61,707 bases of DNA from an uncultured Gammaproteobacteria bacterium (lineage in GTDB: Bacteria; Pseudomonadota; Gammaproteobacteria; HK1). A model generated the notes under the pieces. It was given only the letters and a program-made list of their open reading frames with translations. It was not told where the DNA came from and searched no databases. Where the stretch lies: the NCBI GenBank assembly GCA_947258715.1, contig CAMYJH010000029.1:1-61707 (forward strand), in the 5' to 3' direction. Positions 2,270-37,114 of this stretch are shown in pieces (within the stretch, counting starts at the first letter, position 1; every line of letters starts with the position of its first letter). Position numbers and translations under genes: made by a program.

Positions 2270-3496
2270 TCAGTGATCGGTGCGCTGCGCCCAGCGCATG
2301 GTGATCAGGGCGGCTGCGCCGAATACGGAGAATCCACCCGCGAGCGCCGACACGGTGCCGTCGTAGGCCTGGCCGACAGCCGCGCCAATGGGAACTGAAA
2401 GGAGGGTGCCGACGAATCCCACAACGGCGGCGCCGACGCCCGCAATGTGGCCCAGAGGCTCCATGGAAAGGGCATTGAGATTGCCGAACAGGAGGCCGAT
2501 ACAGAAGAACATTGACATAAAAAAGCACATAAAAAGCCACAGCGGCGGTATTCCTTCGAGCGACCAGACGGCGAGCAGAAATACCAGCGCAAGGCCGGTT
2601 AGCACGTGAATTGCCGTAATGGAGATCTTGCGCATGCCGTGGCGGATGACGAGCCGCCCGTTGATAACAGAGGCGCAGCCGATGGATAAAGCGAGCGTTG
2701 CAAAGTACGCCGGAAACCACTTGCCCACTCCATAGGTCTGCTGAAATATCTGTTGTGCCGAGCTCAAATAACCAACGAAAGCTGCAAATATAAATCCGGT
2801 AGCTACGGTATGACCGATGGCAACGCGGGTAGTGCACACCTCGCGGGCCGCTGCGAGAATTCTACGGACCGAGAACGCAGACCTGCGCTCGGGCGGGAGC
2901 GTTTCCGGCTGACGCAGAGCAAACCAGGCCGAAGTAATCAGCGCTATCAAGAGAAAGGTCGTGAAGATCGCCCGCCATCCGGCAAAAAACAGAATCGCTT
3001 GGCCCATGGCCGGCGCCAGGGCGGGAACCAGAATGAATACCGACAGAGCGAAGGACATGACGCGCGCCATGGCGCGGCCCAGGTACTGATCGCGCACTAG
3101 TGCGATGGTCACGATGCGAGGGGCGGCGGCGCCAACGCCCTGGAGTATCCGCCCCGCAATCATCCATTCGAAGCTTGGCGCGAATATCGATAGCAGGCAT
3201 CCACCCATGAACAAGACCAAACCGGCGTAGATAATCGGCTTACGCCCAAAGCTGTCCGAGAGCGGACCGGCAAGCAGCTGACCGAAGGCAAGCCCGAAGA
3301 ACAGCGACGCCACTACTAGCTGTGTGTCGTTCGGGTCCGAGACAGCGAGGTCGGCGCCAATAGCGGGCAGCGCGGGCAGCATCGCGTCGATGGACATCGC
3401 AACCAGCGAGAACATCAGGGCTATTAGAGCGACGAACTCGGCGAGCGGCAATTTCCCGCCGCTGTCTCGACTGACCACCGAGCGTTCCTGAATCAA
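2270..3496 (-). CDS. MFS transporter, Bcr/CflA-type multidrug efflux family
   Basis: 408-aa ORF with 12 predicted TM segments and MFS signature GRKPIIYAGLVLFMGGCLL...GRILQGVGAAAPRIV. Confidence 0.75.
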   Translation of the reverse strand: MIQERSVVSRDSGGKLPLAEFVALIALMFSLVAMSIDAMLPALPAIGADLAVSDPNDTQLVVASLFFGLAFGQLLAGPLSDSFGRKPIIYAGLVLFMGGCLLSIFAPSFEWMIAGRILQGVGAAAPRIVTIALVRDQYLGRAMARVMSFALSVFILVPALAPAMGQAILFFAGWRAIFTTFLLIALITSAWFALRQPETLPPERRSAFSVRRILAAAREVCTTRVAIGHTVATGFIFAAFVGYLSSAQQIFQQTYGVGKWFPAYFATLALSIGCASVINGRLVIRHGMRKISITAIHVLTGLALVFLLAVWSLEGIPPLWLFMCFFMSMFFCIGLLFGNLNALSMEPLGHIAGVGAAVVGFVGTLLSVPIGAAVGQAYDGTVSALAGGFSVFGAAALITMRWAQRTDH

Positions 3497-3945
3497 GTCA
3501 GGATCGACGCGGACAGAGTTGATAGAAATTGCGGAAACGTCATCTGTCCCATCAAAGCCAGCCCAAGTGGGCTTTGCCCATGTTTCAGATCTCGCTCATG
3601 TGCCGGCGCAAGCGGCGATCTGTACCGCAGGCGGTCGCAAAGTCGCACATTGATGCGCTGGGTGAGGGGCTGAACGTGAATACTTTCTCTGTTCGCGGCT
3701 CGAGCAGAAGGCGGCCGAACGTCTTTTGCCAGAACTCGACGTACCTTGTGAGCCCCATGGAGTTCCTTGCTAGGAGCGAGATTATACAGAATCAGAATCC
3801 AACTAAAGCGTTGGAATCTGCCCTGTGCGGCACCTTAGCGGGTCGACTGGGGATGGCCCCGCCTGCTGCCGACAGCACGAGCGCGAAGCCGCGAAAAAGC
3901 GTTACCGCCACGCGGTCGCGTCGGATTTCGGTTATCAATTGAGGT

Positions 3946-4950
3946 TCACGCCATGTATGCGCTTTTGTATTGTTCCAGTATTCGAATGTAATTGCCGCGT
4001 TTAAACGCCGTCGGATCGGCGACGTTTTGTTCGCTCATGGAACCCTTCATCTGCTCGATCGACGCGTACCCTCGTGCCTCCATCCACTCCTCGACATCAT
4101 GCAGCAGACGTCCGGCGTAGCTTATCCCGTTCTTCAGCAGCGCAGATGTGGTCATGACGGCGTCGGCGCCCGCCATCACGTACTTGATGATCTCGGTGGC
4201 ACTGTGGACGCCTCGCGTCGCAGCCAGTGAGGCGCGCACTCGGCCGTGTAGCAAGGCGATCCAGGTAAGCGGGAGGCGGATCTCCGAAGGCTCGCTGAGC
4301 CCCAGACTGAGGGAGACTTCGAGGCGGTCAATATCGAAATCGGGCTGGTAAAAGCGGTTGAACAGCACCAGCGCGTCTGCGCCGGCTTCATCCAGGCGGC
4401 GCGCCATGTTGCCGAAGGCGCTGAAGAACGGGCTCAGCTTGAGCGCCACCGGGATCGCTACCGCCCCCTTGACGCGCCTGAGGATTTCCACGTATCGCTC
4501 TTCGACCTCTCTGCCCGTGGTCTCGATGTTGGCAGGTATGTAGAAAACGTTGAGCTCAATCGCGCTCGCGCCCGCCTCCTCCATGCGCTTGGCGTAATCG
4601 ATCCAACCCTCGTTGGTAAGACCGTTGAGACTGGCGATAACCGGGATATCGACGGCGTCGCGGGCGCGGCGAATGAGATCGAGATACTGCTCGGCTCCGA
4701 ATTGAAAATCCTCTACCTCTGGGAAGTAGCTCAAGGCTTCACCGAAGCTTTCCGCGCCGTAGCTGGTCAAGTGCGTCATCGCCTCTTCCTCGTAGCGAAT
4801 TTGTTCCTCAAAGAGCGAGAACATCACCACCGCTGCAGCGCCGGCGTCCTCTAGTCGCTTGATGTTGGCAACATCCTCGGACAGAGGTGATGCCGATGCA
4901 ACGAGGGGGTTGCGCAGCTCCAGGCCCATGTAGCTTGTCTTAAGATCCAT
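3946..4950 (-). CDS. dihydroorotate dehydrogenase / dihydropyrimidine dehydrogenase PreA-like TIM-barrel flavoprotein (no Fe-S domain)
   Basis: MDLKTSYMGLELRNPLVASASPLS... (class-1 DHOD/DPD N-terminal motif). RBS GGAGT before ATG 4950; the upstream in-frame extension is rejected. Last gene of the nifJ operon. Confidence 0.65.
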   Translation of the reverse strand: MDLKTSYMGLELRNPLVASASPLSEDVANIKRLEDAGAAAVVMFSLFEEQIRYEEEAMTHLTSYGAESFGEALSYFPEVEDFQFGAEQYLDLIRRARDAVDIPVIASLNGLTNEGWIDYAKRMEEAGASAIELNVFYIPANIETTGREVEERYVEILRRVKGAVAIPVALKLSPFFSAFGNMARRLDEAGADALVLFNRFYQPDFDIDRLEVSLSLGLSEPSEIRLPLTWIALLHGRVRASLAATRGVHSATEIIKYVMAGADAVMTTSALLKNGISYAGRLLHDVEEWMEARGYASIEQMKGSMSEQNVADPTAFKRGNYIRILEQYKSAYMA

Positions 4951-4994
4951 AACTGACTCCTTCCGACTATGCCGCTTTCTGCTGCGACGTCGGT

Positions 4995-7900
4995 TTATTC
5001 TTCTCGAGTGAAGTGGAAGCTCGGGTCGCCTCGGGTTGCCATCTCCTCGTAGACGCGCCACTTCACCTGTAGGTTTTCCTGCGCAAGCGCCATCAGACGC
5101 TCGGCCTCTCGAGGATGGGTACGTGTCAGCATCCGGTAGCGGATCTCGTTGTAGGCGTACTTTTTCAACGCCACACGCGGAGGCTGTGAGTCGAGCAAAA
5201 ACGGATTGCTGCCTTTCTCACGCAGGGTGGGGTTATAGCGAACGAGCGGCCAGTGGCCGCTGTCCACGGCGAGCTTTTGTTGCCGCAGACCGTGCTGCAT
5301 ATTAATCCCGTGCGCAATGCAGTGACTGTAGGCAAGGATCAGGGACGGACCGGGGTAAGCTTCCGCCTCCCGGAGCGCAAGCAGCGTCTGCTGTGGATTC
5401 GCGCCCATTGCTACGCGCGCGACATATATATTTCCGTAAGAAATTGCCTGCAGCGCGAGATCTTTCTTGGCAATCGGTTTTCCCGATGTGGCGAATTTGG
5501 CGACCGCAGCGAGAGGTGTTGCCTTCGACATTTGTCCGCCGGTGTTGGAATAAACTTCGGTATCGAGCACCAGCACGTTGACGTCCCGACCGCTCGCAAG
5601 GACATGGTCTAGACCTCCGTATCCGATGTCGTATGCCCAGCCGTCGCCGCCGACGATCCAGACGCTGCGTCTCACGAATTGGTTGCTGAGTGACAGAAGC
5701 CGCCGGGCATCGTCACTATCCAGCGTCTCGAGCTTTGATTTCAGCGCCGACACCCTGACCCGCTGCTCGCGTATCTGCGACTCTTCTTGCTGCGGCGATT
5801 GAAGTAGTGCATTAACCAGCTCAGAACCCAACTCGCCTTGGAGTTTTAGAAGAAGTTTCTTAGCCAAGGCGCGGTGCGCGTCGGCAGTCAGCCGAAAGCC
5901 AAGCCCGAACTCGGCGTTGTCTTCGAAAAGGGAGTTAGACCACGCGGGACCGCGCCCCTCCGAATTCATGCTCCATGGCGTGGTGGGAAGATTTCCGCCG
6001 TATATGGATGAGCATCCGGTCGCATTGGCAACGATCATTCGGTCGCCGAAAAGCTGTGAAATGAGCTTTAAGTACGGCGTCTCTCCGCAGCCCGCGCAGG
6101 CTCCCGAAAACTCGAACAGCGGCGTGAGATACTGCACTCCCCGCACGGTGGAGAAGTCAATTCGGCTGCGGTCGTTGTCCGGAATCGACTCGAAATATTG
6201 CAGGCCTTCACGCACCTCATCGAGCACCGGTTCGAGGGGCGCCATGTTGATGGCTCTGAATCCGCTTTTCTCCTTGCTGCTGGCGGGGCAGACCTCAACG
6301 CAGAGCGCGCAGCCGGTGCAGTCCTCGGCGTACACCTGCAGCGTGTAACGGGTATCCGGAAAGCCCCGGCCGCTGAGCGGCGCCGAGCGAAAGCCGGTCG
6401 GTGCCGAGTCGAGCTGGGATTGATTGAAGAGCTTTGTCCGAATCACGCTGTGGGGGCAGACAAAGCCGCAGTTTCCACACTGTATACAGATATCCGGCTC
6501 CCATATGGGGGCGAACATGGAGATCCGTCGTTTCTCCCAGCGGGTTGTGCCCGTGGGATAGGTACCGTCTTCAGGAAGCCGGCTTGTCGGCAACTCGTCT
6601 CCCCTCCCTGCCATCATCATGGCGGTGACGTCTCTGACAAATTGTGGCGCCGTCGCGGGCACGATTTCGGGCACGCCGCGATCGCTTGTCACCGTCGAGG
6701 CAACGACCACTTGGTGAAGATTTTCGAGCGTCTGATCGATGGCCTCGAAGTTCCGGCGCACCACGTCCTCACCCTTATTGCCGTAGGTTTTTTGCACCGC
6801 CTCTTTGATCTTGGCGATGGCTTCATCGCGCGGCAGCACGCCCGATATGGCAAAGAAGCAAGTCTGCATCACGGTGTTGATACGCGTGCCCATGCCGTTT
6901 TCGCGCGCCACCCGGTAGGCGTCGATGATGAACAGGCGGATCTGTTTGTCGATGATCGTTTTCTGTGCCGCGCACGGTAGCTGGTCCCATACCGAGTCGG
7001 CCTGGTGCGGACTGTTGAGCAGCAAGGTTGCCCCGTCGGCGGCGTGCGACAGCATATCGGGTCGTTCGAGGAAGCCGAACTGGTGGCAGGCGACGAAGTT
7101 TGCGGAGCGGATAAGGTAAGGCGATCGTATAGGCTGTGGGCCGAATCTCAGGTGAGAGACCGTTCGCGAGCCGGATTTTTTCGAGTCGTAGACGAAATAA
7201 CCCTGGGCGAAAATGTTGTCATCTTCCCCGATGATCTTGATGGAATTCTTGTTGGCGCCCACGGTTCCATCGGCGCCCAGACCGTAGAATACGGCGCGCA
7301 CCGTGTGCTCGGATTCGACGTCGAAGTCGGGATCGTATTCGAGGCTGGTGTCCGACAAATCATCCCGAATACCCACCGTGAAGTGATTCTTGGGCTGCTC
7401 CCGGGCGAGCTCGTCCAGCACCGCCTTGGCCATGGCCGGGGTGAATTCCTTGGAGGAGAGGCCGTAGCGACCGCCAATGACCCGCGGGATGGAATCTCCC
7501 AACAGCGAACCGTTTGCGCGTTTTTCCGAAAACGCGGCCACCACGTCCTGATAAAGGGGCTCGCCCGTCGCCCCAGGTTCCTTGGTGCGGTCCAGTACCG
7601 CCACCGCCTTGACTGTGTCGGGAACGGCTTTGAGAAACTGGCTCGGCGAAAACGGTCGATAGAGGCGCACCTGCATCACGCCCACCGAGTCGCCGCGAGT
7701 ATTGAGGTGCTCGACCGTTTCGCGCAGGGTCTCGACGCCCGAGCCCATTAAAACGACGACCCGCTCGGCTTCCGGATCGCCGAAGTAATCGAACAGCCGG
7801 TACCGTCGCCCGGTGAGGTCGGCAAAACGCTCCATGACGTTTTGTACGATCTCGGGAGCTTGTGTGTAAAAAGGATTGACCGTTTCACGGGCCTGGAAAT

Positions 7901-8573
7901 AAACGTCGGGGTTCTGCGCACTGCCCCGCATCACAGGTCGGTCAGGAGTGAGACCGCGCCCGCGGTGAGCGATGACCAGCGGGTCCGGAATCATTGCTCG
8001 GATGTCCTCATCCGATAAAAAGTCCAGCTTGTTGATCTCGTGGCTGGTTCGAAAGCCGTCGAAGAAATGAATGAAGGGCAGACGCGACTCGAGACTGCTT
8101 GCCTGGGCGATGAGCGCGAGGTCGTGGGCCTCCTGAACTGAGCTTGATGCAAGCATGGCCCAGCCCGTGGAACGGGTTGCCATGACATCCGAATGATCTC
8201 CGAAAATCGAAAGGGCCTGCGCCGCCAGCGAACGGGCCGCGACGTGGAATACCGTGGCCGTGAGCTCTCCCGCGATCTTGTACATGTTGGGGATCATGAG
8301 CAGCAGACCCTGCGAGGCAGTGAAAGTCGTGCTGAGCGCCCCCGTCTGCAGCGAGCCGTGCACCGCGCCCGCCGCCCCGGCTTCACTTTGCATTTCGACC
8401 ACGGCGGGTACGCAACCCCAGACGTTTTCCCGGCCTTCGCTGGCCCACTGGTCAGCATGCTCGCCCATCGGCGACGACGGCGTGATGGGATAAATCACGC
8501 ACACCTCGTTGGTTCGGTAAGCGATGCTTGCGGCGGCCTCGTTACCGTCGAGGGTGACTCGTTTTGCCGTCAT
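4995..8573 (-). CDS. nifJ: pyruvate:ferredoxin (flavodoxin) oxidoreductase, single-polypeptide PFOR
   Basis: About 1190 aa. MTAKRVTLDGNEAAASIAYRTNEVCVIYPITPSS matches the PFOR N-terminus. Two CxxCxxCxxxCP ferredoxin motifs are present mid-protein. RBS GGGAGAG upstream of ATG 8573. Confidence 0.9.
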   Translation of the reverse strand: MTAKRVTLDGNEAAASIAYRTNEVCVIYPITPSSPMGEHADQWASEGRENVWGCVPAVVEMQSEAGAAGAVHGSLQTGALSTTFTASQGLLLMIPNMYKIAGELTATVFHVAARSLAAQALSIFGDHSDVMATRSTGWAMLASSSVQEAHDLALIAQASSLESRLPFIHFFDGFRTSHEINKLDFLSDEDIRAMIPDPLVIAHRGRGLTPDRPVMRGSAQNPDVYFQARETVNPFYTQAPEIVQNVMERFADLTGRRYRLFDYFGDPEAERVVVLMGSGVETLRETVEHLNTRGDSVGVMQVRLYRPFSPSQFLKAVPDTVKAVAVLDRTKEPGATGEPLYQDVVAAFSEKRANGSLLGDSIPRVIGGRYGLSSKEFTPAMAKAVLDELAREQPKNHFTVGIRDDLSDTSLEYDPDFDVESEHTVRAVFYGLGADGTVGANKNSIKIIGEDDNIFAQGYFVYDSKKSGSRTVSHLRFGPQPIRSPYLIRSANFVACHQFGFLERPDMLSHAADGATLLLNSPHQADSVWDQLPCAAQKTIIDKQIRLFIIDAYRVARENGMGTRINTVMQTCFFAISGVLPRDEAIAKIKEAVQKTYGNKGEDVVRRNFEAIDQTLENLHQVVVASTVTSDRGVPEIVPATAPQFVRDVTAMMMAGRGDELPTSRLPEDGTYPTGTTRWEKRRISMFAPIWEPDICIQCGNCGFVCPHSVIRTKLFNQSQLDSAPTGFRSAPLSGRGFPDTRYTLQVYAEDCTGCALCVEVCPASSKEKSGFRAINMAPLEPVLDEVREGLQYFESIPDNDRSRIDFSTVRGVQYLTPLFEFSGACAGCGETPYLKLISQLFGDRMIVANATGCSSIYGGNLPTTPWSMNSEGRGPAWSNSLFEDNAEFGLGFRLTADAHRALAKKLLLKLQGELGSELVNALLQSPQQEESQIREQRVRVSALKSKLETLDSDDARRLLSLSNQFVRRSVWIVGGDGWAYDIGYGGLDHVLASGRDVNVLVLDTEVYSNTGGQMSKATPLAAVAKFATSGKPIAKKDLALQAISYGNIYVARVAMGANPQQTLLALREAEAYPGPSLILAYSHCIAHGINMQHGLRQQKLAVDSGHWPLVRYNPTLREKGSNPFLLDSQPPRVALKKYAYNEIRYRMLTRTHPREAERLMALAQENLQVKWRVYEEMATRGDPSFHFTREE

Positions 8574-8613
8574 CGGCGCTCTCCCGAAAATAACCAAAAT
8601 TCCGCGAGTGCGA

Positions 8614-10242
8614 TCATGCGGGCTCCGGAATCATCTCAATGGCGCCGCACGGACACTGCTCGAAACACACGGCGCATCCGGTGCATTTCTGGTAATCGAA
8701 GCGATATCGCTTGCCGGCGCCAAGCTTGATCACCGCGTTATCGGGGCAGGCGCCGAGGCAGGCATCGCACTCGAAACAGTTGCCGCAGGAAAGACAGCGG
8801 CGCGACTCGAATAGGGCCTCGTCTTCACCGAGTCCCTTGATCACCTCGTCAAAGCTGGTACGCCGAGCTTCGACGTCAATCTGCCTTTCGGCCTTTTTCA
8901 GCGCATCGGTGAAATACCAAACGTGCAGGCGGTCGTATTCCGCGAGCGGGTTCGGGGCTCGCTTTTCGTAACTGACTCCCTTCAGCCACGCGTTAATGTG
9001 GCGTGCGGCTTTTTTACCGTGTCCGACCGCGGTGGTGACGGTGCGTTCGGCGGGCACCATGTCACCGCCGGCAAAGATGCCGGGGCAACCAGTCATCATC
9101 TGAGCGTTGACATTTACGGTGCCGTCGGACTGAAACTCCACGCCCGGCACGCGGCGCAGAAAATCCGTATCGGTGCGTTGCCCGAGCGCCATGATGAGCG
9201 AATCCGCCTCCAGCGTTTCGACCTCTCCGGTGGGTACCGGTCGACCGTTTTCATTAATGCGCATGGCCTCGACTTTGAAAGTCGTGTGATCAATCTCCTT
9301 GATGGTGCGAAGCCAGTGGATCTTGACGCCCTCTTCGATGGCGCTTTCGGCTTCAAAGTCGTGTGCGGGCATGTGCGCCCTGTCACGGCGGTAGATAATG
9401 AGCGGCTCGTAGCCGAGACGCTTCACCGTGCGCGCGGTATCCATGGCCGTGTTTCCACCACCGTAAACCGCAACCCGGCGTCCCAGCTTCGGACGCTCGC
9501 CGCCTTCCACATCCCGCAAGAAGCTCAGGGCGTCGAGAATTTTGCCCGCGTCGCGGGCGGGAATGTCGGTGCGTTGACTCAGATGGGCTCCCACCGCGAC
9601 GAAGGCGGCGTCGAATCCGCCGGCCTCCTTTTCCGTCTGCAGGTCTTCTACCTTGTGCTCCAAAACGATGCGCACGCCTGCGTCCTCGATGCGCTGAACT
9701 TCTGAGTCGAGTATGTCTCGCGGCAGCCGGTACTTGGGAATGCCGAAGTGCATCATTCCGCCCGCCAGCGGGCCCGCGTCCCGGATCTCAACCTCATGCC
9801 CCAGTCGTGCGAGATGCCAGGCGCAGGAAAGTCCGCTTGGACCGGCGCCGACGATGAGAATTCGGTTTCCGCTTTGCGCGGCTGGTTTTGCCGAACTCCA
9901 CTTCTTGGCGATCGCCTGGTCTCCGAGGAAGCGCTCTACGGCATGTATCGCGACCGGCGAGTCGAGATGCATGCGGTTACAGAGATCTTCGCAGGGGTGA
10001 TAACAGACGCGCCCGTGGGTCGCCGGCAGCGGGTTGTCGTCCACGATTTGACGCCACGCATCCTCGAAGCGGTTCTGCTGCACCAGCGCGAGCCAGGCTT
10101 GAATATTCTCGCCGGCGGGACAGGCGTGGTTGCAGGGCGGCAGCAGGTCCACGTAACGCGGGCGCCGGCTGCGCTCGACGCCGGAGAAGCCGCCGTGGCG
10201 CAAATCCGGTGGCTGCGTCAGGTCGTGGTCGGGTCGACTCAT
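8614..10242 (-). CDS. GltD-like FAD/NAD(P)H oxidoreductase with C-terminal 2x[4Fe-4S] ferredoxin domain (NfnB/PreT-like)
   Basis: 542 aa. N-terminal Cys cluster (CNHACPAG...VCYHPCEDLC) and GAGPSGL Rossmann motif match the glutamate-synthase small-subunit family. The C-terminus carries CLSCGNCFECDACLGACP and CTGCAVCFEQCP. RBS AAGGGAGAA before ATG 10242. First gene of the operon with nifJ. Confidence 0.75.
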   Translation of the reverse strand: MSRPDHDLTQPPDLRHGGFSGVERSRRPRYVDLLPPCNHACPAGENIQAWLALVQQNRFEDAWRQIVDDNPLPATHGRVCYHPCEDLCNRMHLDSPVAIHAVERFLGDQAIAKKWSSAKPAAQSGNRILIVGAGPSGLSCAWHLARLGHEVEIRDAGPLAGGMMHFGIPKYRLPRDILDSEVQRIEDAGVRIVLEHKVEDLQTEKEAGGFDAAFVAVGAHLSQRTDIPARDAGKILDALSFLRDVEGGERPKLGRRVAVYGGGNTAMDTARTVKRLGYEPLIIYRRDRAHMPAHDFEAESAIEEGVKIHWLRTIKEIDHTTFKVEAMRINENGRPVPTGEVETLEADSLIMALGQRTDTDFLRRVPGVEFQSDGTVNVNAQMMTGCPGIFAGGDMVPAERTVTTAVGHGKKAARHINAWLKGVSYEKRAPNPLAEYDRLHVWYFTDALKKAERQIDVEARRTSFDEVIKGLGEDEALFESRRCLSCGNCFECDACLGACPDNAVIKLGAGKRYRFDYQKCTGCAVCFEQCPCGAIEMIPEPA

Positions 10243-10422
10243 GATTTCTCCCTTGGGGCACGCCCCCCGAATTCAGGAGCGAGCCTCGAGTTGGCGCAAG
10301 GGATATTGTCACCGGATCGGGGGGGACCTTAAAGTGACCGAGGTCAATGGAAGGGCGGGCAGAAATGAGGGCTCGGGGATGACTCATCCAGCTAACATTT
10401 CTTGGCTCAAAAGGCCTATCCT

Positions 10423-10539: not shown

Positions 10540-11406
10540 ATGTACGAAATCGTCGCCCGCGAAGATTTTTCCGACTCCACTTTCCTGCTGGAGGTGAAGT
10601 ACCCACTGCTTGCCAAGGCCGCAAGGCCCGGCCAGTTCGTGATCGTCATGTCAAACGCTGACGGCGAGCGAATTCCGCTGACTATCGCCGACTTCTCCCC
10701 CGAGCGGGGAACGGTCACCCTGGTGATACAGGCCGTGGGCAAGACGACCATGGAGATGCAACGACGCTGCATCGTGGGCAGCGCACTGTACGCAATGGTC
10801 GGTCCCATGGGTAAGCCGAGCGAAATCAGCAAGATGGGAAAGGTCGCTTGCGTAGGGGGAGGCCTCGGCGTGGCGCCGGTGTATCCCCAGGCCCGGGCAT
10901 TCAAGCAAAACGGCGCCTACGTGATCGGCATCGTCGGCTTTCGCAGCAGGGACCTGATCTTCTGGCAGCGGAAGTTCGAGGACGTTTGCGACGAGCTCAT
11001 TATCTGCACCGACGACGGTTCGGCGGGTATCAAGGGGCTGGTGACCGACGGGATCGCGATGGCTGTGGACAAGCATCCCGACATCGACGAGGTCATTGCC
11101 ATCGGGCCGCCGGTGATGATGAAGTTCTGCGCCGAGGCGACCCGCGCCCGCGATATAAAGACCACAGTCAGCTTGAACCCGATCATGGTGGACGGCACCG
11201 GCATGTGTGGTGGCTGTCGCGTGTCCGTCGGCGGCGAGATGCGTTTTTGCTGCGTGGACGGACCCGATTTTGACGGTCACCAGGTCGACTTCGATGAACT
11301 CATGCGCCGGCTGACGCGCTTTCGCGAGGACGAACGGGCCGCGCTGGAGCGCTGGCAGCGCAACCCGGGATGCCGCCTGGAACAAGAGCCGACCGCCAGC
11401 GAGTAA
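10540..11406 (+). CDS. nfnA: NfnA / PyrK-like FAD-[2Fe-2S] NAD(P)H oxidoreductase subunit (ferredoxin:NADP+ oxidoreductase alpha-like)
   Basis: MYEIVAREDFSDSTFLLEVKYPLL...; C-terminal [2Fe-2S] motif MCGGCRVSVGGEMRFCCVDGPDFDG typical of PyrK/NfnA/SudB. ATG 10540 is chosen over the GTG at 10444 by expected length (about 288 aa). Confidence 0.7.
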   Translation: MYEIVAREDFSDSTFLLEVKYPLLAKAARPGQFVIVMSNADGERIPLTIADFSPERGTVTLVIQAVGKTTMEMQRRCIVGSALYAMVGPMGKPSEISKMGKVACVGGGLGVAPVYPQARAFKQNGAYVIGIVGFRSRDLIFWQRKFEDVCDELIICTDDGSAGIKGLVTDGIAMAVDKHPDIDEVIAIGPPVMMKFCAEATRARDIKTTVSLNPIMVDGTGMCGGCRVSVGGEMRFCCVDGPDFDGHQVDFDELMRRLTRFREDERAALERWQRNPGCRLEQEPTASE

Positions 11407-11439: not shown

Positions 11440-12939
11440 ATGGCAAAGAAGACGATCCGAAACATACCGCAGGAGCGCACCGCGATGCCGGTTCAGGAGC
11501 CGAAGGCGCGGGTGCGCAACTTTTCGGAGGTGGCTCTCGGTTACTCTCTGGCTGAGGCGCTCAACGAGGCGGAGCGCTGCATCATGTGCCCGCAGGAGCC
11601 GTGTGTGAAAGGCTGTCCCGTGGAGATCGACATACCCGGGTTCATTCAAAAGATTTGTGACCAGAATTTCCGTGGCGCTTACGACGTGATCACGGATACG
11701 AACCTGCTGCCGGCCATCTGCGGCCGGGTTTGTCCCCAGGAGTCACAGTGCGAGCAGGTATGCATCGTGGGTGACCATTTGGAACCCGTCGCCGTAGGCC
11801 GGCTGGAGCGATTCGTCGGCGACATGGCGGTTGCCGAGGGCTGGAGCAACGAACCGGACATCGAGCCGAACGGCCGCCGGGTGGCCATCGTCGGCGCGGG
11901 ACCTGCCGGCATCGCCTGCGCTGCGGATATGGCGAAGGCGGGCTGCGAAGTGGTTATCTACGAAGCCCTGCACCGTCCCGGCGGTGTGCTGAGCTACGGG
12001 ATCCCGGAGTTCCGTCTCCCCAACGAAATAGTCGACGATGAATTCGGCAAAGTCATCGAGCTGGGCGTCAAGGTGGAGTGCAACACCCTCGTGGGGCGGC
12101 TATTCACCATCGAGCAGCTTCGCGAAAAGATGGGATTCGACGCGGTGTTCATCGGGACCGGCGCCGGTTACCCCACGTTCATGGGCATACCGGGAGAGTC
12201 GCTGAACGGCGTGCTTTCGGCCAACGAGTTTCTCACCCGCTGCAACCTGATGCAGGCCGGGGAGTTTCCCTACAAGGACACGCCCCTGCACATGGGGCGC
12301 AAGGTTGCCGTCATCGGTTCCGGCAATACCGCCATGGATGCGATGCGCGTATCACTGCGCCTGGAGGCGGAGGAGGTACACTGCCTGTACCGCCGCAGCC
12401 GCGCCGAGAGCCCGGCGCGGGCGGAGGAGGTCGACCACGCCGAAGAGGAGGGTGTCATCTTCCACTGGCTGACGGCGCCGGTGGAGATCCTCGACGACGG
12501 CAACAACAACGTGCGGGCGCTGCGCTGCATTCGGATGGAATTGGGCGAGCCGGACGACTCCGGCCGAAGGCGTCCTGTCGCCATCGAAGGCAGCGAGTAC
12601 GAGTTCGAGGCCGACATGGTGATCTATGCCATCGGCACAAACGCCAACCCAATCATCGGTCAGACCTCCAATCTGGAGCTCAACAAGTGGGGCTATATCG
12701 AGGCCAACGAGCAGCAGCGAACCTCGATCGCAGGCGTATTCGCCGGAGGGGATATTGTCACCGGAGCGGCCACCGTAATCCTGGCCATGGGCGCCGGAAG
12801 ACGGGCCGCGCGCAGCATGAAGGCCTATCTCGGTATTCTCGACCCGGTGGAGATGGCTGTCTCGGACCCGGAGCGCCCCCGGATATTCGGCATCGACGCG
12901 CGACAGAGGAACTACCGCAGGGTGCGGGTTGCCGCTTGA
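11440..12939 (+). CDS. nfnB: NfnB / GltD-like NADPH oxidoreductase subunit with N-terminal 2x[4Fe-4S]
   Basis: 499 aa with CIMCPQEPCVKGCP and CGRVCPQESQCEQVC, then GAGPAGIACA and a second GSGNTAMD nucleotide-binding motif. Paired with the upstream NfnA-like gene (33-bp gap). Confidence 0.75.
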   Translation: MAKKTIRNIPQERTAMPVQEPKARVRNFSEVALGYSLAEALNEAERCIMCPQEPCVKGCPVEIDIPGFIQKICDQNFRGAYDVITDTNLLPAICGRVCPQESQCEQVCIVGDHLEPVAVGRLERFVGDMAVAEGWSNEPDIEPNGRRVAIVGAGPAGIACAADMAKAGCEVVIYEALHRPGGVLSYGIPEFRLPNEIVDDEFGKVIELGVKVECNTLVGRLFTIEQLREKMGFDAVFIGTGAGYPTFMGIPGESLNGVLSANEFLTRCNLMQAGEFPYKDTPLHMGRKVAVIGSGNTAMDAMRVSLRLEAEEVHCLYRRSRAESPARAEEVDHAEEEGVIFHWLTAPVEILDDGNNNVRALRCIRMELGEPDDSGRRRPVAIEGSEYEFEADMVIYAIGTNANPIIGQTSNLELNKWGYIEANEQQRTSIAGVFAGGDIVTGAATVILAMGAGRRAARSMKAYLGILDPVEMAVSDPERPRIFGIDARQRNYRRVRVAA

Positions 12940-12963: not shown

Positions 12964-15255
12964 TCAGTCGAAAGCTGCCGCCCGCTTCTTAAGCTCCTCC
13001 AGTCCCGGCTCGCTCGGGTCCAGCGGCTGGCCCGGGTGGATGATGCAGACCGGGCAGTTCTCGGCCGCTTCCACCAGTTCCCTGTAGGTCCCGGCGGTGA
13101 CGTCCTTGATGAAGGCCTGCTTCGCGTCGTTGTAACCGAACATCGCGGCGTTGCGATCGATGCAGTCGTCGCAGGTGGTGCAGAACTCGGTGTCGATGAA
13201 GGCCTGGTCGCTCGGTGTCGAGACTTCGGGTGCCGGTGCCTCTTCAATCTCTTCCGGCGCCTCCGCCTCGGCGGGTACCGGCTCCGCCATCGGTTCCTCG
13301 GCCTGAGCCGGGCGCGTTAGATCCAGCTCTTCGATGGCGCGCTGATGTTCTTCTTCGAGTCGTGCGCGCTGCTCCTCGAGCAGCCTAATGGCGTGAGAGT
13401 TCCGGACCCCGCCCAGCTCCTGGAGCCTTTTCCAGCTGGCCAGGCATTTGCGTGCAAACGGCACCAGGGCGCGTCGCACGACTACCCGATGCACGCGGTC
13501 TTCGGAATCTATCAGGTATACGAAAGGGACCTTATCGATGCTTCCTTGTCGCGAAAGGGTAAGATATTCAGCCATTGGCACCATGTTCGCGTGCCAACGG
13601 GACTGCGGCACGATGACGAAGTGCTGCCGGGACCGCGGCTCGAGCATCAAGAAATCAACGCAGGTAAAAACGAGATTCTCGCTGGCCTCCTGGCTATCCG
13701 CGGTTTCGTAGTCGTAGCAATGCTCGGGCCAATCACGATCCGGTTGAGGACTTCCTCGGAGGGAGTAACGGGATGCCAGGTCGTCACCGCGATCCGGGTC
13801 GTAAACGAAACTCGGAAAGGCGCGGGACTCGACCGCGCTGGCGCAATTCAGATAGTGGGGGACGCTAGCCGGTGGTACATCGGGTCCAGTGTAGATACAG
13901 AAAAGCGCCGGTCCTTCGCGGCCTAGACCAGCCACGATTTCCGCCGCAAGCTGTGGCAGATGCGAGGCAGCCGTTTGCATCACGAAAGCCTCTCCCATGG
14001 AGGTCGCCATGGCGGCAATCTGCTGCGTCCACTCGGTAGACGATCCGGGGGGCGCATTGGAAGAGGTACTCACGGAAAGCTGCTTTATTTCCAGAAGCAC
14101 TTTAACCGGCATATCCGATCCGAGAATTTCAATCAGGGTTGATTTTTCCGCATCGCTCAAGTTTTCGCCGTCCAGAAAGACCAGCAAGGGTGGTAGAGCC
14201 CGGTAGTCCTCGGAGGTGAGCTGCTCGGGGCCGAATGTCTTGAAAAAGGTATCGTGCCGTTCTTCGTGGTAACGGTTCTCGAGTTCGAGACTGGCCACCC
14301 TTATCGCCCGAAGCAGCTCGACTCTGCGTTTGAGCTCAGTGTCGAAAAGTTCGACGGCTTCGGCACAGCTGTGACACGTGCCTGCGCGTCGCCGGTCGCG
14401 CCTGCGTCGTTTGCCGTTACCGCCCGGCGATGGGAGAAGCGCGCGTTCCGATTTGAGCACCTTGCTCGCGACGCGCAGGCGCTTGAGGCGTTTCGCCGGC
14501 ATGGGGCGGGATTGACTCGCGCCCCGCAGGAGAGTGGAGAGGGCTTTGAAGTCGATGCCTCCGGCGTGTTCGCCTCCCATGGCAGCCTCGAGCGCCTCCG
14601 GCGACGTCGACTTGGGAGATCTCGCGCGCTCCGATTCCAGCACCTCGGACAGTCGGGCGATGAGTTCTTCGACCGCGACGCGTTCGCTTTCGGCCCGCTG
14701 CGCCTGGATCGGCCACCAGGCATGCTCGAATATCTGGCGTGCGCTGTGGGGCCCGCAGGAGATCAATCGCCCGTCATGCGCGAGATCGGCTTTGACAGAA
14801 TCGAGGCTGGCTCGAATCTGATCCGGGCGTTCACTCCGCGCAACGACCTGCTCCGTCGCCAAGGTCCAGAGCTCCGACAGGCGCTGCGCCCGCTTTCCCT
14901 TGGTAAGACGTTTGATTGACGCCTCCAGCCGGTAGACGTGTGCCCGCAGGGCCTCCGCTTCCGCGCCCGACACCGCCACTTGGTCCAGGATGCCGTCGAT
15001 GATACTGGCCAACGAGATGACGGGCGTATCGGCTCGGTCCTCTACCAGTAACACGGGAAAGTCGTGGCGGACCGATTCGAGATCCAGGTAGGCACCGAGA
15101 AGGGCCGGAACCAACTCAGGTTGTAGCTGCTTACCCTCGCGTTGCTTTTCTTCCGGTTCGGCCAGGTGAATGCGCAGGAGATCCGTCAAGCCCTCGTCGT
15201 GAAGGACTGCCGCAAGCGGGTCCAAACGGTCGCTGGTTGTACGACCCTGCAACAT
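12964..15255 (-). CDS. large (763 aa) uncharacterized protein with a C-terminal single-cluster ferredoxin domain, co-transcribed with korAB
   Basis: RBS AAGGA 6 nt before ATG 15255, 39 bp downstream of the korB stop. C-terminus FIDTEFCTTCDDCIDRNAAMFGYNDAKQAFIKDV...ENCPVCIIHP has the CxxCxxC...CP pattern of small single-[4Fe-4S] ferredoxins. I recognise no family in the N-terminal ~700 aa, which contain a basic KRRRRDRRR patch. Confidence 0.7.
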   Translation of the reverse strand: MLQGRTTSDRLDPLAAVLHDEGLTDLLRIHLAEPEEKQREGKQLQPELVPALLGAYLDLESVRHDFPVLLVEDRADTPVISLASIIDGILDQVAVSGAEAEALRAHVYRLEASIKRLTKGKRAQRLSELWTLATEQVVARSERPDQIRASLDSVKADLAHDGRLISCGPHSARQIFEHAWWPIQAQRAESERVAVEELIARLSEVLESERARSPKSTSPEALEAAMGGEHAGGIDFKALSTLLRGASQSRPMPAKRLKRLRVASKVLKSERALLPSPGGNGKRRRRDRRRAGTCHSCAEAVELFDTELKRRVELLRAIRVASLELENRYHEERHDTFFKTFGPEQLTSEDYRALPPLLVFLDGENLSDAEKSTLIEILGSDMPVKVLLEIKQLSVSTSSNAPPGSSTEWTQQIAAMATSMGEAFVMQTAASHLPQLAAEIVAGLGREGPALFCIYTGPDVPPASVPHYLNCASAVESRAFPSFVYDPDRGDDLASRYSLRGSPQPDRDWPEHCYDYETADSQEASENLVFTCVDFLMLEPRSRQHFVIVPQSRWHANMVPMAEYLTLSRQGSIDKVPFVYLIDSEDRVHRVVVRRALVPFARKCLASWKRLQELGGVRNSHAIRLLEEQRARLEEEHQRAIEELDLTRPAQAEEPMAEPVPAEAEAPEEIEEAPAPEVSTPSDQAFIDTEFCTTCDDCIDRNAAMFGYNDAKQAFIKDVTAGTYRELVEAAENCPVCIIHPGQPLDPSEPGLEELKKRAAAFD

Positions 15256-15293: not shown

Positions 15294-16260
15294 CTAGGAT
15301 TCCGGCAGCACCGTAAATCTGTCGAACTCCCGCTCCAGGGCAGCGATCTTGGCGCTCACCGGTAGATGCTTCTCACGCCGATGCAGGTCCTCGTAGCAGG
15401 GGACGGAGCCGTCGCGATAGAGGATGCCTACGGAAATTTTTTCCCCCACCTCCGCCAGCGCCCGAGCCCGTCCCAGGTCAGAAGGATCATGCTCCTCGCG
15501 ACTGGAGAAAGGACGCCTCATCGGGATGGATGCCGTTGGGGTGGGTCAACAACCGAATCCGCTCGGGGTTCTTGATGTACGGATCGAAGTGACCCGGCAG
15601 GTAGTGCGGGCACCTCTGCAGAACACTGACGAAGGACAGGCCTCGGTGGAGAAACGCCTGATGGATGATGTCGTACAAAATGGCGGGCAGCCAATCGACC
15701 GCCTGGGCCACGAAGGAAATGTTGGACATGCCGAGCGTCGCCGACAGCGCGTTCAGCGGCTCTAAGGGGGCGCCACGGGGTGACGTGTTGGTCCGCAGGC
15801 CCTTCGGCGAGGTGGGTGATACCTGGTTCTTGGTCAGGCCGTACACCCGATTGTCGTGCATGATCACCGTCATGTTCATGTTGTAGCGTACGGCGTGCAG
15901 CCAGTGTCCAGCACCGATGCTGCAGCAGTCGCCGTCACCGGTGTTGACGAACACGTGCAGGTCGGGCCGCTTGATCTTGATGCCTTCGGCCAGCGGCAGC
16001 GCGCGCCCGTGCAAACCGTGGAAGCCGTACGTGCCCATGTAGTGAGGCAGCCGGGAGGCGCAGCCGATCCCCGAGACGAATACGGTTCTCTCGGGCGGGA
16101 GCTGCTCCTCGGCGCAGAGTTTCTGCAGCGCAGTGAGAATGGCGTTGTCACCGCAGCCATGGCACCAGCGCGACACGGCCCCTTCATAGTCATGCAGGAT
16201 GTGCGCGTCTTCCTCCAGATCCGCCACGCTGGTTGGCAGTCTATCGATGAAATCAGACAT
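15294..16260 (-). pseudogene. korB: 2-oxoglutarate/2-oxoacid:ferredoxin oxidoreductase beta subunit (TPP-binding), apparently interrupted by a +1/-1 frameshift near 15490-15520
   Basis: ORF 15487-16260 (...GDGDCCSIGAGHWLHA...TKNQVSPTSPKG...) matches KorB up to ...HPNGIHPDEA. The C-terminal ...REEHDPSDLGRARALAEVGEKISVGILYR... continues in another frame (ORF 15294-15521). The two ORFs overlap across an approximately 22-nt stretch GCGTCCTTTCTCCAGTCGCGAG. Confidence 0.6.
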
Positions 16261-18639: not shown

Positions 18640-19050
18640 TTGGACCGTTCTTCGCTCCCGATCCATGGCGACGGGCGTCGCTCAGCGACGTGTGGGGAAT
18701 CTATTTCTGCCTCGGTCTCACCGCAGCGGCATCGGTGCCGCTCGTCGGCATGGTCTCAGCCCCAAATGTGCATCTCTACTGGTCCGGAATCGGGAGCGTG
18801 CTCGGGACCCGGCCGCTCGTCTATATCGCCGCCGCTTTCCCGGCGGCTGCGCTATCAGATTGGCTGGGACCGGGTCGCGTCTTGCCGGTCGCTGCGCTGC
18901 CGATGGGTTTCTCCGCTGCCCCGAGGGCACCGGCGACGGGACACTGCAGACTGATTTCCGCTGTCGGCGTTTTCGCGCTTGGCGGAGCGACGGTATCCAT
19001 ACGGGGAAAGGCATCGGGGCAGAGCAGTATCTCTCACCCTGACCAGTTTC
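18640..19050 (+). pseudogene. degenerate 5' fragment of an MFS transporter gene, paralogous to the N-terminus of the intact gene at 20101-21408
   Basis: Translation WGIYFCLGLTAAASVPLVGMVS...RPLVYIAAAFPAAALSDWLGPGRVLPVAALPMGFSAAPRAPATGHCRLISAVGVFALGGATVSI aligns with WTIYFCFGLTAAAMAPLVGVIS...WPLVYIAAAIPGGAVLDRFGVGRALLVAVLLMAFSGALRALATGHLSLFLAVGVFGLGGPLVSI (about 55% aa, about 70% nt identity). No C-terminal remainder follows, and it abuts the xni 3' end. Confidence 0.6.
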
Positions 19051-19075
19051 TGCCGATCGCCCCTTTCCGGCGCCA

Positions 19076-19849
19076 TCAAGCCGACGGCAATCGCAGCTGA
19101 TTGAGGTTGATACCAATGCTCACGTCGGTCTTCAGGCGTACCAGGGCGACGGACAGTCGCGCCTGAGTCGCTTCGGCGATCAGCGCTTTCCCCGCTCTGC
19201 CCGGAATTTCCTCCGCCTTCGCCAACATATTTTCCAGCGTGCCGTGCTCGTTGATCAGCTTTGCCGCGGTGCGCGGGCCAATCGATTTGACCCCGGGGAT
19301 GTTCAGCGACTTATCGCCCATCAGCCCGAGCACATCGGTGAGCTGCGACGGGGTAACGCCGAACTTCTCTTTTATATATACGCCATCCAATTCGCGACCC
19401 GCGAAATGATCGCGGATCCGGATCCTGTCTCCCGCCAGCTGGCACATGCTTTTGTCTGTAGAAAGAATCACCGCTTGCCCATCGTGAGCGGCTATTTTTA
19501 CAGCGATGGTCGCTATAACGTCGTCGGCTTCTACATTGGGCACGGATACGCAACGAACGCCGAGATTCTCGATCGCTTCTTCAACCCGATGCAGGTTCAA
19601 TCGGAGCGGATCAGGCATTGGCGGGCGATCTCGCTTGTAGTCTGGAAACATCTCGTGTCGCCAGTTTCTGCCGCCGGCGTCGAATACGCACACCGCGTGC
19701 GTCGGCGTGAGCTCATCCAGGGCGCGGCGTATGGAATTCAGCGTCGAATCCAGCGCGCCGTCGAAATGCTCGGGTGAATGCTCGTTTCCCGGTACCGCGG
19801 CATATACCCGTCGCACCAGGTTCAAACCGTCGATGATCAGAACTTTCAT
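19076..19849 (-). CDS. xni: flap endonuclease Xni (5'-3' exonuclease IX family)
   Basis: MKVLIIDGLNLVRRVY...VCVFDAGGRNWRHEMFPDYK...SVPNVEADDVIATIA...LSTDKSMCQL. PIN-like metal-binding residues and H3TH region are typical of Xni/ExoIX. Confidence 0.85.
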   Translation of the reverse strand: MKVLIIDGLNLVRRVYAAVPGNEHSPEHFDGALDSTLNSIRRALDELTPTHAVCVFDAGGRNWRHEMFPDYKRDRPPMPDPLRLNLHRVEEAIENLGVRCVSVPNVEADDVIATIAVKIAAHDGQAVILSTDKSMCQLAGDRIRIRDHFAGRELDGVYIKEKFGVTPSQLTDVLGLMGDKSLNIPGVKSIGPRTAAKLINEHGTLENMLAKAEEIPGRAGKALIAEATQARLSVALVRLKTDVSIGINLNQLRLPSA

Positions 19850-30489: not shown

Positions 30490-30520
30490 GCTTCGTCTCC
30501 CATGTTACTGAGCCGCTGTT

Positions 30521-36254: not shown

Positions 36255-36255
36255 C

Positions 36256-37068: not shown

Positions 37069-37114
37069 GGGCCAAGCGCCCAGAAACTGGCGCGCAGCCC
37101 GATCTCGGGGTTGA

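Follow-up and report, generated by a model that had tools for sequence, protein, structure and literature searches.

What do two flavoproteins do on either side of a pyruvate:ferredoxin oxidoreductase (PFOR, nifJ), and where do the electrons of pyruvate go in a cell that encodes the three together? This question is raised by a locus in contig CAMYJH010000029.1 of an uncultured Gammaproteobacteria bacterium (NCBI GenBank assembly GCA_947258715.1), of which the stretch of 61,707 nucleotides is called here the window. Its minus strand carries, in this order, genes for a GltD-like/NfnB-like protein with its own ferredoxin domain (GltD-Fd), for a single-chain PFOR and for a barrel protein resembling dihydroorotate dehydrogenase (DHOD-like). 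The arrangement is conserved across phyla, and it is best, though tentatively, understood as a self-wired, PFOR-centred pyruvate:NADP+ electron-transfer system, a proposal to which we give a little less than an even chance. The features of the operon, in which the motifs resembling ribosome-binding sites (RBS) were read from the sequence, are the following:

8614-10242, minus strand: GltD-like/NfnB-like FAD and NAD(P)H protein with C-terminal 2x[4Fe-4S] domain, 542 aa (NF009410/PRK12771)
4995-8573, minus strand: single-chain PFOR, 1192 aa, ATG at 8573 (TIGR02176)
3946-4950, minus strand: DHOD-like protein, predicted FMN TIM barrel, 334 aa, ATG at 4950 (NF005741/PRK07565)
10247-10252, minus strand: RBS-like GGGAGA before the GltD-Fd start
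8579-8585, minus strand: RBS-like GGGAGAG before the PFOR start, inside the 40-bp gap
4957-4964, minus strand: RBS-like GGAAGGAG before the DHOD-like start, inside the 44-bp gap
3894-3916, minus strand: terminator-like hairpin with T-run (consensus match), 30 bp past the DHOD-like stop

The spacing is 40 bp between the GltD-like and PFOR genes and 44 bp between PFOR and the DHOD-like gene, and purine-rich RBS-like motifs stand ahead of all three starts. These open reading frames (ORFs), gaps and motifs had been put forward in an earlier, sequence-only reading of the locus and were all confirmed from the sequence, while the domains it had described for the three proteins were borne out by Pfam and NCBIfam. 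The only minus-strand terminator-like hairpins of the region (3916-3904 and 3815-3798) lie just 3' of the DHOD-like gene, and the hairpin at 3894-3916 is the probable end of the operon.

Conservation of the arrangement was followed with the DHOD-like protein as query against one genome per species. At least 588 relatives came up, of which the 80 best loci were retained; their ORFs were assigned by BLAST, and synteny was counted where the upstream flank measured 5.6 kb or more, as it did in 62 loci. PFOR lies directly upstream of the DHOD-like gene in 62/62 loci and the complete triplet, with identical order and strand, is present in 60/62, the identities to the window proteins ranging over 48-91% (GltD-Fd), 62-90% (PFOR) and 54-87% (DHOD-like). 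At least five phyla are represented by these loci (Beta-, Alpha- and Gammaproteobacteria, Acidobacteriota, Bacteroidota, Ignavibacteria and Kiritimatiellia), among whose named groups are Nitrosomonas, Rhodocyclaceae, Vicinamibacteria (Acidobacteriota), and Chitinophagaceae and Saprospiraceae (Bacteroidota); Competibacteraceae occur only as source names of homologous proteins and not among the synteny loci. The two exceptions are metagenome-assembled genomes from Bacteroidota (locus L014) and Kiritimatiellia (locus L021), in which PFOR and the DHOD-like gene are kept and the genes upstream are unrelated. Such an arrangement is far from chance. The sequence-only reading had made its case depend on whether GltD-Fd, nifJ and DHOD-like genes stay together in relatives, and in these loci they do.

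The same reading did not recognise this arrangement around nifJ. It has been described, however, by McCubbin et al. 2020 (Genes 11:1115; PMC7650540) in Propionibacterium, a member of the Actinobacteria and so of another phylum than the window organism, in this comparison a betaproteobacterial MAG; there nifJ is flanked as in the window by a GltD-like gene with an extra ferredoxin site and by a DHOD-like gene. These flanking genes are co-transcribed with nifJ and co-regulated with it at transcript and protein level, and a CRISPR knockout of the PFOR severely impaired growth. The authors postulated a bifurcating complex with ferredoxin, NAD(P) and quinol and asked for further study (PMC7650540). 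Among the full-text literature searched, that paper alone addresses the triplet, and a mention of PRK07565 elsewhere (PMC3224940) proved to be a mislabel for class 2 PyrD. Both flanking proteins belong to curated NCBI families, NF009410/PRK12771 ("NAD(P)-binding protein") and NF005741/PRK07565 ("dihydroorotate dehydrogenase-like protein"), the function of which is uncurated. The window is therefore one more member of a widespread gene cluster noted once before (PMC7650540). Because synteny holds in 60/62 loci across phyla and the genes are co-transcribed and co-regulated in Propionibacterium (PMC7650540), the three genes are very probably a conserved, co-functional unit.

The central enzyme offers few clues to this partnership. 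PFOR matches TIGR02176 with 1770.7 bits (cut-off 911.35) over model positions 2-1166 of 1167, shows the Pfam order POR_N, PFOR_II, POR(gamma), EKR, 2x[4Fe-4S] ferredoxin domain and TPP_enzyme_C, and has the motifs CIQCGNCGFVCP and CTGCALCVEVCP. Its residues 5-1179 align to the structure of M. thermoacetica PFOR (6cin), and the alignment to the D. africanus enzyme (1b0p) is equally good, with small indels only; no PFOR-specific docking insertion was found. The D. africanus enzyme extends further at its C-terminus, into a protective domain VII, and this extension is missing from the window PFOR in the alignment. An enzyme of the type of Euglena pyruvate:NADP+ oxidoreductase (PNO) was also considered and rejected, the protein ending at the canonical C-terminus with no fused P450-reductase-like domain. 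As far as its sequence tells, PFOR is a canonical single-chain enzyme with no mark of partner specialisation.

The GltD-like protein consists, according to Pfam, of Fer4_20, Pyr_redox_2 and a C-terminal 4Fe-4S dicluster domain, and it matches NF009410/PRK12771 with 753.3 bits (cut-off 516) over model positions 18-565 of 566. Its parts are:

9901-10140, minus strand: N-terminal Fer4_20 domain, residues 35-114 (PF14691, 74 bits), with C37, C41, C80, C84, C88 and E103
9016-9864, minus strand: FAD and NAD(P)H Rossmann domains, residues 127-409 (Pyr_redox_2, 148 bits)
8782-8889, minus strand: linker, residues 452-487, RRTSFDEVIKGLGEDEALFESRRCLSCG, aligning to the NfnB N-terminal segment with the first two cluster cysteines
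8632-8781, minus strand: C-terminal 2x[4Fe-4S] ferredoxin domain, residues 488-537, CxxCxxCxxxCP twice (Fer4_21, Fer4_7, Fer4)

In the first of these, E103 occupies the position of the site-differentiated ligand, matching in the alignment Glu126 of PfNfnB and Lys170 of StnC (ligand identities from PMC12221290 and PMC10482914), so that the window protein has Glu as in NfnB where StnC has Lys. The Rossmann domains contain R172, equivalent to NfnB Arg201, H294 at the position of NfnB Arg333, and GGGNTAMD...YRRDR, a signature of the NADPH type. Across 60 GltD-Fd orthologues 16 cysteines, E103 and R172 are invariant, including C483 and C486 of the linker and all eight cysteines of the ferredoxin domain, which has a predicted isoelectric point (pI) of 4.7 and whose best dicluster match is Fer4_21 (28.7 bits, under the 35-bit cut-off). 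The linker assignment comes from secondary HMMER alignments to 5jca_L and 4ylf_B and from an unbroken alignment with 9bov and 8oh5 that extends to residue 493, and it points to a permuted layout like that of StnC and of the Bfu-type NfnA. C483 and C486 would then fold back and complete the distal NfnB-type cluster, and the predicted inventory would be two NfnB-type [4Fe-4S] clusters (7 Cys + Glu) plus the 2x[4Fe-4S] domain, with one Cys to spare.

The sequence-only reading took this protein for one half of a module like dihydropyrimidine dehydrogenase (DPD). Its comparison with solved relatives does not sustain that view, since the scores reach 313 bits for 9BOV (Csac NfnA), 295 for 9N5U (archaeal Nfn-Bfu NfnA), 283 for 8OH5 (StnC), 232 for P. 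furiosus NfnI-B and 220 for T. maritima NfnB, against 155 for GltD and 110 for DPD. In sequence, the subunit's distance to NfnB-type modules is much smaller than that to GltD or DPD. Its predicted cofactors are those of NfnB, namely FAD, an all-Cys cluster and a cluster with 3Cys+Glu ligation, and it also has an NADPH-type site and the counterpart of Arg201; it differs in the relocated N-terminal segment, in having no NfnA partner in the operon and in carrying H, Y or F in place of Arg333. With StnC (8OH5) and the Bfu NfnA proteins (9BOV, 9N5U) the likeness extends through the post-flavin linker with its CxxC and the permuted layout. In those proteins, however, the module lies inside NuoG/FdhF-like subunits of ~960-1180 aa which feed a HydBC/BfuBC core, whereas GltD-Fd has 542 aa, a simple ferredoxin end and no NuoEF-like partner: no NuoE/NuoF-like (HydBC/BfuBC) genes were found in the operon or in the first 22 kb of the window.

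Whether the FAD of such a protein bifurcates can be judged from the work of Huang et al. 2025 (JBC; PMC12221290), who measured the activity of NfnB-like proteins lacking NfnA and found them to be monofunctional ferredoxin:NADP+ (Fd:NADP+) oxidoreductases, and who gave a long N-terminus, Arg333 and an upstream nfnA as the discriminators of bifurcating NfnB. The window protein fails all three. The position of Arg333 is filled by Y in 33, H in 25 and F in 2 of the 60 orthologues; the extended N-terminus with Cys42/Cys45 has its counterpart relocated to residues 452-487; and no nfnA-like gene stands upstream in the operon, as the promoter region lies upstream of 10242 and the nfnA-like gene nearby is on the opposite strand. 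A bifurcating NfnB identity is rejected on these grounds together with the TIGR01316 score (276, cut-off 472). In the cryo-EM papers on StnABC and NfnABC (PMC10482914, PMC11829005), the role assigned to the homologous module is that of a NADPH/FAD entrance, non-bifurcating, through which an Fe-S wire is fed. A functional parallel may be the CA_C0764-type proteins (PMC12221290), compared here by description, which share with GltD-Fd a standalone Fer4_20 + Pyr_redox_2 architecture, the lack of NfnA and the lack of Arg333, features which are necessary and not sufficient for this assignment and which go together, in that family, with measured Fd to NADP+ transfer that conserves no energy. The CA_C0764-type proteins differ in that the ferredoxin domain at the C-terminus is missing and a link to PFOR is no part of their description. 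The proposal, made from the sequence, that the GltD-like unit serves as NAD(P)H port is thus a credible one, given the measured Fd:NADP+ activity of its relatives (PMC12221290) and the GGGNTAMD...YRRDR signature.

That signature is one of two forms of the nucleotide site (residues 250-300, L001-L080). GGGNTAMD...YRRDR was seen in 24/60 orthologues, from the window, other proteobacteria, Acidobacteriota and some Bacteroidota, and GGGKLALY...YFPGDKK in 36/60, the Chitinophagaceae-type sequences, which have no Arg pair and an acidic residue instead. The latter form may use NADH, and the two together suggest that cofactor specificity, for NADPH or NADH, differs among lineages. The two Nitrosomonas GltD-Fd sequences show FRLDR, with F where NfnB has Arg333.

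On the other side of PFOR, the DHOD-like protein matches NF005741/PRK07565 with 482.2 bits (cut-off 303), and Pfam recognises a DHO_dh TIM barrel (42.9 bits). An exhaustive phmmer search of 1.84 billion representatives placed 1,128 clusters (50% identity) in its family at E <= 1e-30 and 3,897 at E <= 1e-10. Residue conservation was read from 81 close and 131 distant members and from alignments to solved DHODs and pig DPD. K171, the counterpart of Lys164 of DHODA and Lys709 of DPD, is present in 131/131 distant members and N198 (Asn193/Asn736) in 122/131; N134 (Asn127/Asn668) is kept too, and the phosphate-binding strands are retained, with ATRGV and TTSA aligning to GTGGI and IGTA. In DHOD and DPD the residues that match K171, N134 and N198 contact FMN.

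The catalytic apparatus, by contrast, is gone. The loop N-x-S-C-P-N has become N-[VI]-[FY]-Y-I-P-A (N134-V-F-Y-I-P-A-N in the window); Cys671/Cys130 is replaced by I138, Lys574/Lys43 by V42 and Asn609/Asn67 by P77, and a helical insert takes the place of the Asn67 region. Because the catalytic Cys and two other key residues are gone, DPD-like chemistry is excluded. Every curated model of the known enzymes stays under its threshold (DHOD models TIGR01037, 93.4 vs 270; NF005574, 92.7 vs 269; NF002702, 59.3 vs 301; NF003645, 31.6 vs 366; PreA model NF006183, 75.1 vs 335), and a genuine DHOD (1A, 1B or 2) or DPD function was discarded for this and for the missing catalytic residues. The protein does not qualify as a DPD/PreA chain either: an Fe-S domain is missing, its sequence contains not a single Cys, and none is conserved in the family. 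Other residues are conserved in this family specifically (S45, E48, E49, N109, Y/F136, R199, D204, D206, S219, R318 and Y321), in loops at the catalytic face of the barrel. Foldseek places first the pig DPD chains, at domain IV (E = 5e-13, TM-score ~0.6, 19% identity), followed by class 1A DHODs. From these comparisons we conclude that the DHOD-like protein is, by prediction, an FMN TIM barrel of the PyrD/DPD-IV lineage devoid of pyrimidine chemistry. An acidic pI was considered as evidence of docking at a ferredoxin site and was dropped, being too unspecific (family median 5.3).

Which of the two flavoproteins belongs more closely to PFOR is answered by the distant members of the barrel family. 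Genomic contexts were collected for 12 distant representatives (37-46% identity), of which nine were informative, all of them NF005741 members (365-443 bits). Four of the nine (37-41% identity, 365-393 bits) adjoin a single-chain PFOR, and in none of these four is GltD-Fd a neighbour. Three orientations occur: the DHOD-like gene followed by PFOR, PFOR followed by the DHOD-like gene (overlapping or 4 bp apart), and divergent; one of these loci lies beside aa3-type cytochrome oxidase genes. Since 2/62 close loci and 4/4 PFOR-linked distant members lack the GltD-like gene, PFOR and the DHOD-like protein form an old, tight core pair, to which GltD-Fd is an addition in one large subclade. The picture of a PFOR embedded in a split DPD-like module survives only in part: the domains do add up to those of DPD (Fer4_20 with FAD/NADPH, 2x[4Fe-4S] and an FMN TIM barrel, as in the mammalian enzyme and in E. 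coli PreT/PreA) and the barrel fold matches DPD domain IV, but PFOR is not inserted between two DPD halves, because the core is PFOR plus the DHOD-like protein and such pairs exist where no GltD-like gene is found. Besides, the ferredoxin domain is fused in the window to the GltD-like chain, unlike in DPD.

The remaining contexts extend the barrel family to other enzymes. In a Synergistales locus (L096, 29-7048) the DHOD-like gene comes last after genes for NuoE-like, NuoF-like, Fer2/Fer4, polyferredoxin, tungsten-type aldehyde ferredoxin oxidoreductase (AOR) and ThiS/MoaD-like proteins, an operon resembling a Bfu-type NAD(P)H-linked AOR with an NF005741 flavoprotein added. In another (L092) it follows a four-gene cluster for an NAD(P)-type [NiFe]-hydrogenase including a PyrK-like subunit. 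A metagenome scan with this hydrogenase-linked member gave three loci. In the closest (L098, 86% identical) the hydrogenase large subunit is reduced to a C-terminal fragment, which makes the link to hydrogenase a weak one; more telling in L098 is a small ferredoxin gene for a single-cluster protein (Fer4_13, 3387-3635), whose start is overlapped by the DHOD-like gene. In L098 (983-3635) and L099 (814-2717) the DHOD-like gene is also near a Redoxin/AhpC-TSA peroxiredoxin fused to pterin-4a-carbinolamine dehydratase, and a pterin or peroxide link of this subgroup is conceivable. The DHOD-like family thus recurs beside proteins with ferredoxin-type clusters. The analogy with DPD would then hold at one contact, an FMN barrel fed from a 2x[4Fe-4S] fold; the electrons for the FMN may come from PFOR domain V, from the ferredoxin domain in which GltD-Fd ends, or from ferredoxin in free form.

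How could the electrons flow in such an assembly? In the scheme that we tentatively favour, the three proteins would form a complex in which PFOR converts pyruvate and CoA to acetyl-CoA and CO2, the low-potential electrons leaving through its three [4Fe-4S] clusters. The 542-aa GltD-Fd would act as an NADP(H) port of the NfnB/StnC type whose own 2x[4Fe-4S] domain replaces free ferredoxin, and the net reaction would be pyruvate + CoA + NADP+ -> acetyl-CoA + CO2 + NADPH, most likely with no bifurcation at the FAD. The DHOD-like barrel, as the evolutionarily primary partner of PFOR, would hold FMN and be reduced by ferredoxin-type clusters, in the way in which the ferredoxin domain of DPD supplies its FMN domain, serving as a one-electron/two-electron adaptor or as the site for a two-electron substrate.

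Precedents exist for enzymes of the PFOR type reaching pyridine nucleotides through a flavoprotein, namely PNO of Euglena and Cryptosporidium and the NAD(P)-linked 2-oxoacid oxidoreductases KorABC and PadEFGHI of Azoarcus/Aromatoleum. In PNO the flavoprotein part is a cytochrome-P450-reductase-like FMN/FAD domain fused to the enzyme, and the KorC subunit belongs to the Fpr-type reductases; to our knowledge, a single-chain PFOR flanked by a DHOD-like TIM barrel or by an NfnB-like Fe-S flavoprotein is found in neither.

Several observations weigh against the pyruvate:NADP+ scheme. Its weak point is that a simple chain of this kind makes the FMN protein redundant, yet the FMN protein is the more strictly conserved partner. 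No docking insertion or extra domain of PFOR appears in the alignments to 6cin and 1b0p, and no fusion of the DHOD-like protein with PFOR or the GltD-like protein was met in the best 150 representatives (253-419 aa, standalone), so that a stable complex is not demonstrated. NADPH specificity is not general, because the Bacteroidota orthologues carry GGGKLALY...YFPGDKK. In three of the nine distant contexts the neighbours are unrelated, with no PFOR or other Fe-S enzyme nearby. The AlphaFold2 models have pLDDT 63 for GltD-Fd, with Fe-S regions of low confidence, and 72.5 for the DHOD-like protein, with its conserved loops of low confidence; and no biochemical characterisation of any family member was found in the full-text literature searched.

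Because the simple pyruvate:NADP+ chain needs no FMN protein, two rivals stay alive. The stronger one, a minority view with a real chance of being right, makes the operon a three-port bifurcating or confurcating complex, with a low-potential port in PFOR (about -500 mV), a medium-potential one for NADP(H) at the FAD of GltD-Fd and a high-potential substrate (quinone, fumarate, NAD+ or other) at the FMN. It would run from pyruvate and a reduced high-potential donor to 2 NADPH, or from 2 NADPH to pyruvate synthesis with the acceptor reduced. Such a complex accounts for the strict conservation of the third flavoprotein, and the NfnB-type Glu ligand E103 and the Arg201 equivalent R172 are kept in GltD-Fd. 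The NF005741 members beside AOR with NuoEF-like proteins and beside [NiFe]-hydrogenase with a PyrK-like subunit show a pattern typical of bifurcating systems, and an FMN between Fe-S wires resembles the flavobicluster site of Bfu enzymes (PMC11829005). Bifurcation was also suggested for Propionibacterium, with quinol as third partner, on bioenergetic grounds (PMC7650540); the quinol was placed at an "NfnA-like" subunit on weak similarity, whereas the DHOD-like protein of the window is a PyrD/DPD-IV barrel and not NfnA/PyrK-like. It has neither the quinone-binding N-terminal domain nor an Fe-S cluster, and the third substrate is purely hypothetical. Against the same rival speak the Arg333 position, never Arg in 60 orthologues, the nearest solved module relatives, explicitly non-bifurcating (PMC10482914, PMC11829005), the lack in the operon of an NfnA-like or HydBC-like partner, and the PFOR + DHOD-like pairs which occur with no adjoining NAD(P)H subunit. 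An extended form of this idea, in which NF005741 would be a general third-port module for bifurcation or confurcation at very low-potential Fe-S enzymes (PFOR, AOR, NAD(P)-linked hydrogenase), is in our judgement unlikely.

The second surviving rival regards GltD-Fd and the DHOD-like protein as a small-molecule reductase in the style of DPD or GOGAT, dependent on NADPH and merely co-expressed with PFOR. Electrons would pass from NADPH through FAD and Fe-S clusters to FMN and the substrate, with no dedicated PFOR complex, and co-expression would reflect a common pathway or the use of PFOR as an alternative donor through free ferredoxin. In all characterised GltD-type systems that we know of (GOGAT, DPD, FadH) the FMN TIM barrel is the substrate site. 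The domain sum of DPD, the best fold match of the barrel to DPD domain IV and the sub-cut-off best match of the dicluster domain to Fer4_21 agree with this idea, and the conserved S45, E48, E49, Y/F136, R199, D204, D206, R318 and Y321 suggest a real ligand pocket. The DHOD-like protein, however, tracks PFOR (62/62) rather than GltD-Fd (60/62) and does without GltD-Fd in all four PFOR-linked distant members, and GltD-Fd is nearer to the Nfn/Stn-type modules than to PreT or DPD. We consider such a reductase quite unlikely.

Many carriers of the genes are aerobic (Chitinophagaceae, Nitrosomonas, Vicinamibacteria), which counts for a further possibility: where oxygen is present, the DHOD-like protein would assist or protect PFOR as an electron sink, draining, buffering or shielding the distal cluster and catalysing no metabolic reaction of its own, with GltD-Fd as a separate Fd:NADP+ reductase. 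The locus beside the aa3-type cytochrome oxidase and the missing D. africanus-type extension point the same way. This role is improbable, given that the family is also found in strict anaerobes (Synergistales) and beside AOR and hydrogenase genes, that the strongly conserved pocket-like residues argue for a specific chemistry, and that it has no direct support. It is scarcely credible, finally, that the flanking genes are ordinary pyrimidine enzymes (DHOD or DPD subunits) set beside nifJ by chance, as the automated name "dihydroorotate dehydrogenase (fumarate)" in some sources and the Pfam DHO_dh match of 42.9 bits might suggest, when the scores are far under the cut-offs (93 vs 270, 93 vs 269, 75 vs 335), the catalytic Cys/Ser loop has given way to another sequence, neither Lys43/574 nor Asn67/609 is kept and the cross-phylum synteny with PFOR is incompatible with chance.

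The surroundings of the operon hold further genes of low-potential electron transfer, a canonical NfnAB pair and, further on, KorAB, which form a local cluster:

10540-11406, plus strand: NfnA-like protein (NF004862, 381 bits), divergent from the PFOR operon
11440-12939, plus strand: NfnB-like protein (TIGR01316, 605 bits), Arg at the Arg333 position (SPAR), nfnA directly upstream

The adjacency of NfnAB and KorAB to the operon is shared only with the closest relative (L001), and these genes are local context, not part of the conserved module. Directly downstream of korAB and on the same strand lies an ORF of 763 aa (12964-15255, minus strand), 80% conserved in L001, with no NCBIfam match and in Pfam only a C-terminal Fer4_13 (26 bits), which may be a Kor-associated electron carrier. 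korB itself (15294-16260, minus strand) seems frameshifted: the ORF 15487-16260 covers positions 2-190 of the 286-position PorB/KorB model (227.7, cut-off 261.9), and another frame encodes at 15297-15500 ~68 residues (...VGILYRDGSVPCYEDL...) before a stop at 15294-15296, taken as the KorB C-terminus with no model comparison behind it. The break is either a sequencing error or the mark of a pseudogene.

Farther along the window, a plus-strand ORF overlapping the 3' end of xni (18690-19100) is 56% identical, in an alignment of 116 aa (E = 1e-31), to the N-terminal part of the major facilitator superfamily (MFS) transporter encoded at 20101-21408 and looks like a decayed partial duplicate of that gene. 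A minus-strand cluster at 23116-37155 (BatA / VWA / DUF58 / MoxR-AAA / TPR / DUF4159) resembles an aerotolerance operon, and is flanked by two ORFs with no Pfam match, 23116-26907 (1263 aa) and 33993-36254 (753 aa).

Outside the window, a Microcystis gene annotated as dihydroorotate dehydrogenase-like is among the most strongly night-induced (bioRxiv 10.1101/2024.07.07.602159). This would fit a role in dark, fermentative (PFOR-active) metabolism, should the gene belong to NF005741 and be tied to nifJ.

As far as literature searches show, what is new here is the breadth of the association between PFOR and the DHOD-like protein, the recognition of PFOR + NF005741 as a core pair in a family that also stands beside other low-potential Fe-S enzymes and ferredoxins, and the residue-level evidence against a DHOD, DPD or NfnB identity of the flanking proteins.

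The usual picture of PFOR is that of an enzyme of anaerobes which depends on ferredoxin or flavodoxin. The PFOR considered here has a flavoprotein dedicated to it and, in a large subclade, an NADP(H)-binding Fe-S flavoprotein as well. Many of the lineages concerned are aerobes or facultative organisms and are abundant in the environment (Chitinophagaceae, Saprospiraceae, Vicinamibacteria, Nitrosomonas, Competibacteraceae, Rhodocyclaceae). If the operon does encode a ferredoxin-independent pyruvate:NAD(P)+ oxidoreductase, it would be a compact alternative to the pyruvate dehydrogenase complex, and redox-balance models would change, for example as regards the NADPH for polyhydroxyalkanoate synthesis in wastewater bacteria. 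If it bifurcates, it would represent a new class of bifurcating enzymes and a route to NADPH-driven pyruvate synthesis; with NF005741 as a third port, largely aerobic bacteria would make pyruvate from acetyl-CoA and CO2 at the expense of NADPH and with no free ferredoxin or, in the other direction, obtain 2 NADPH from pyruvate and a high-potential donor. Under either reading, a function would be assigned to two curated, unnamed NCBI families.

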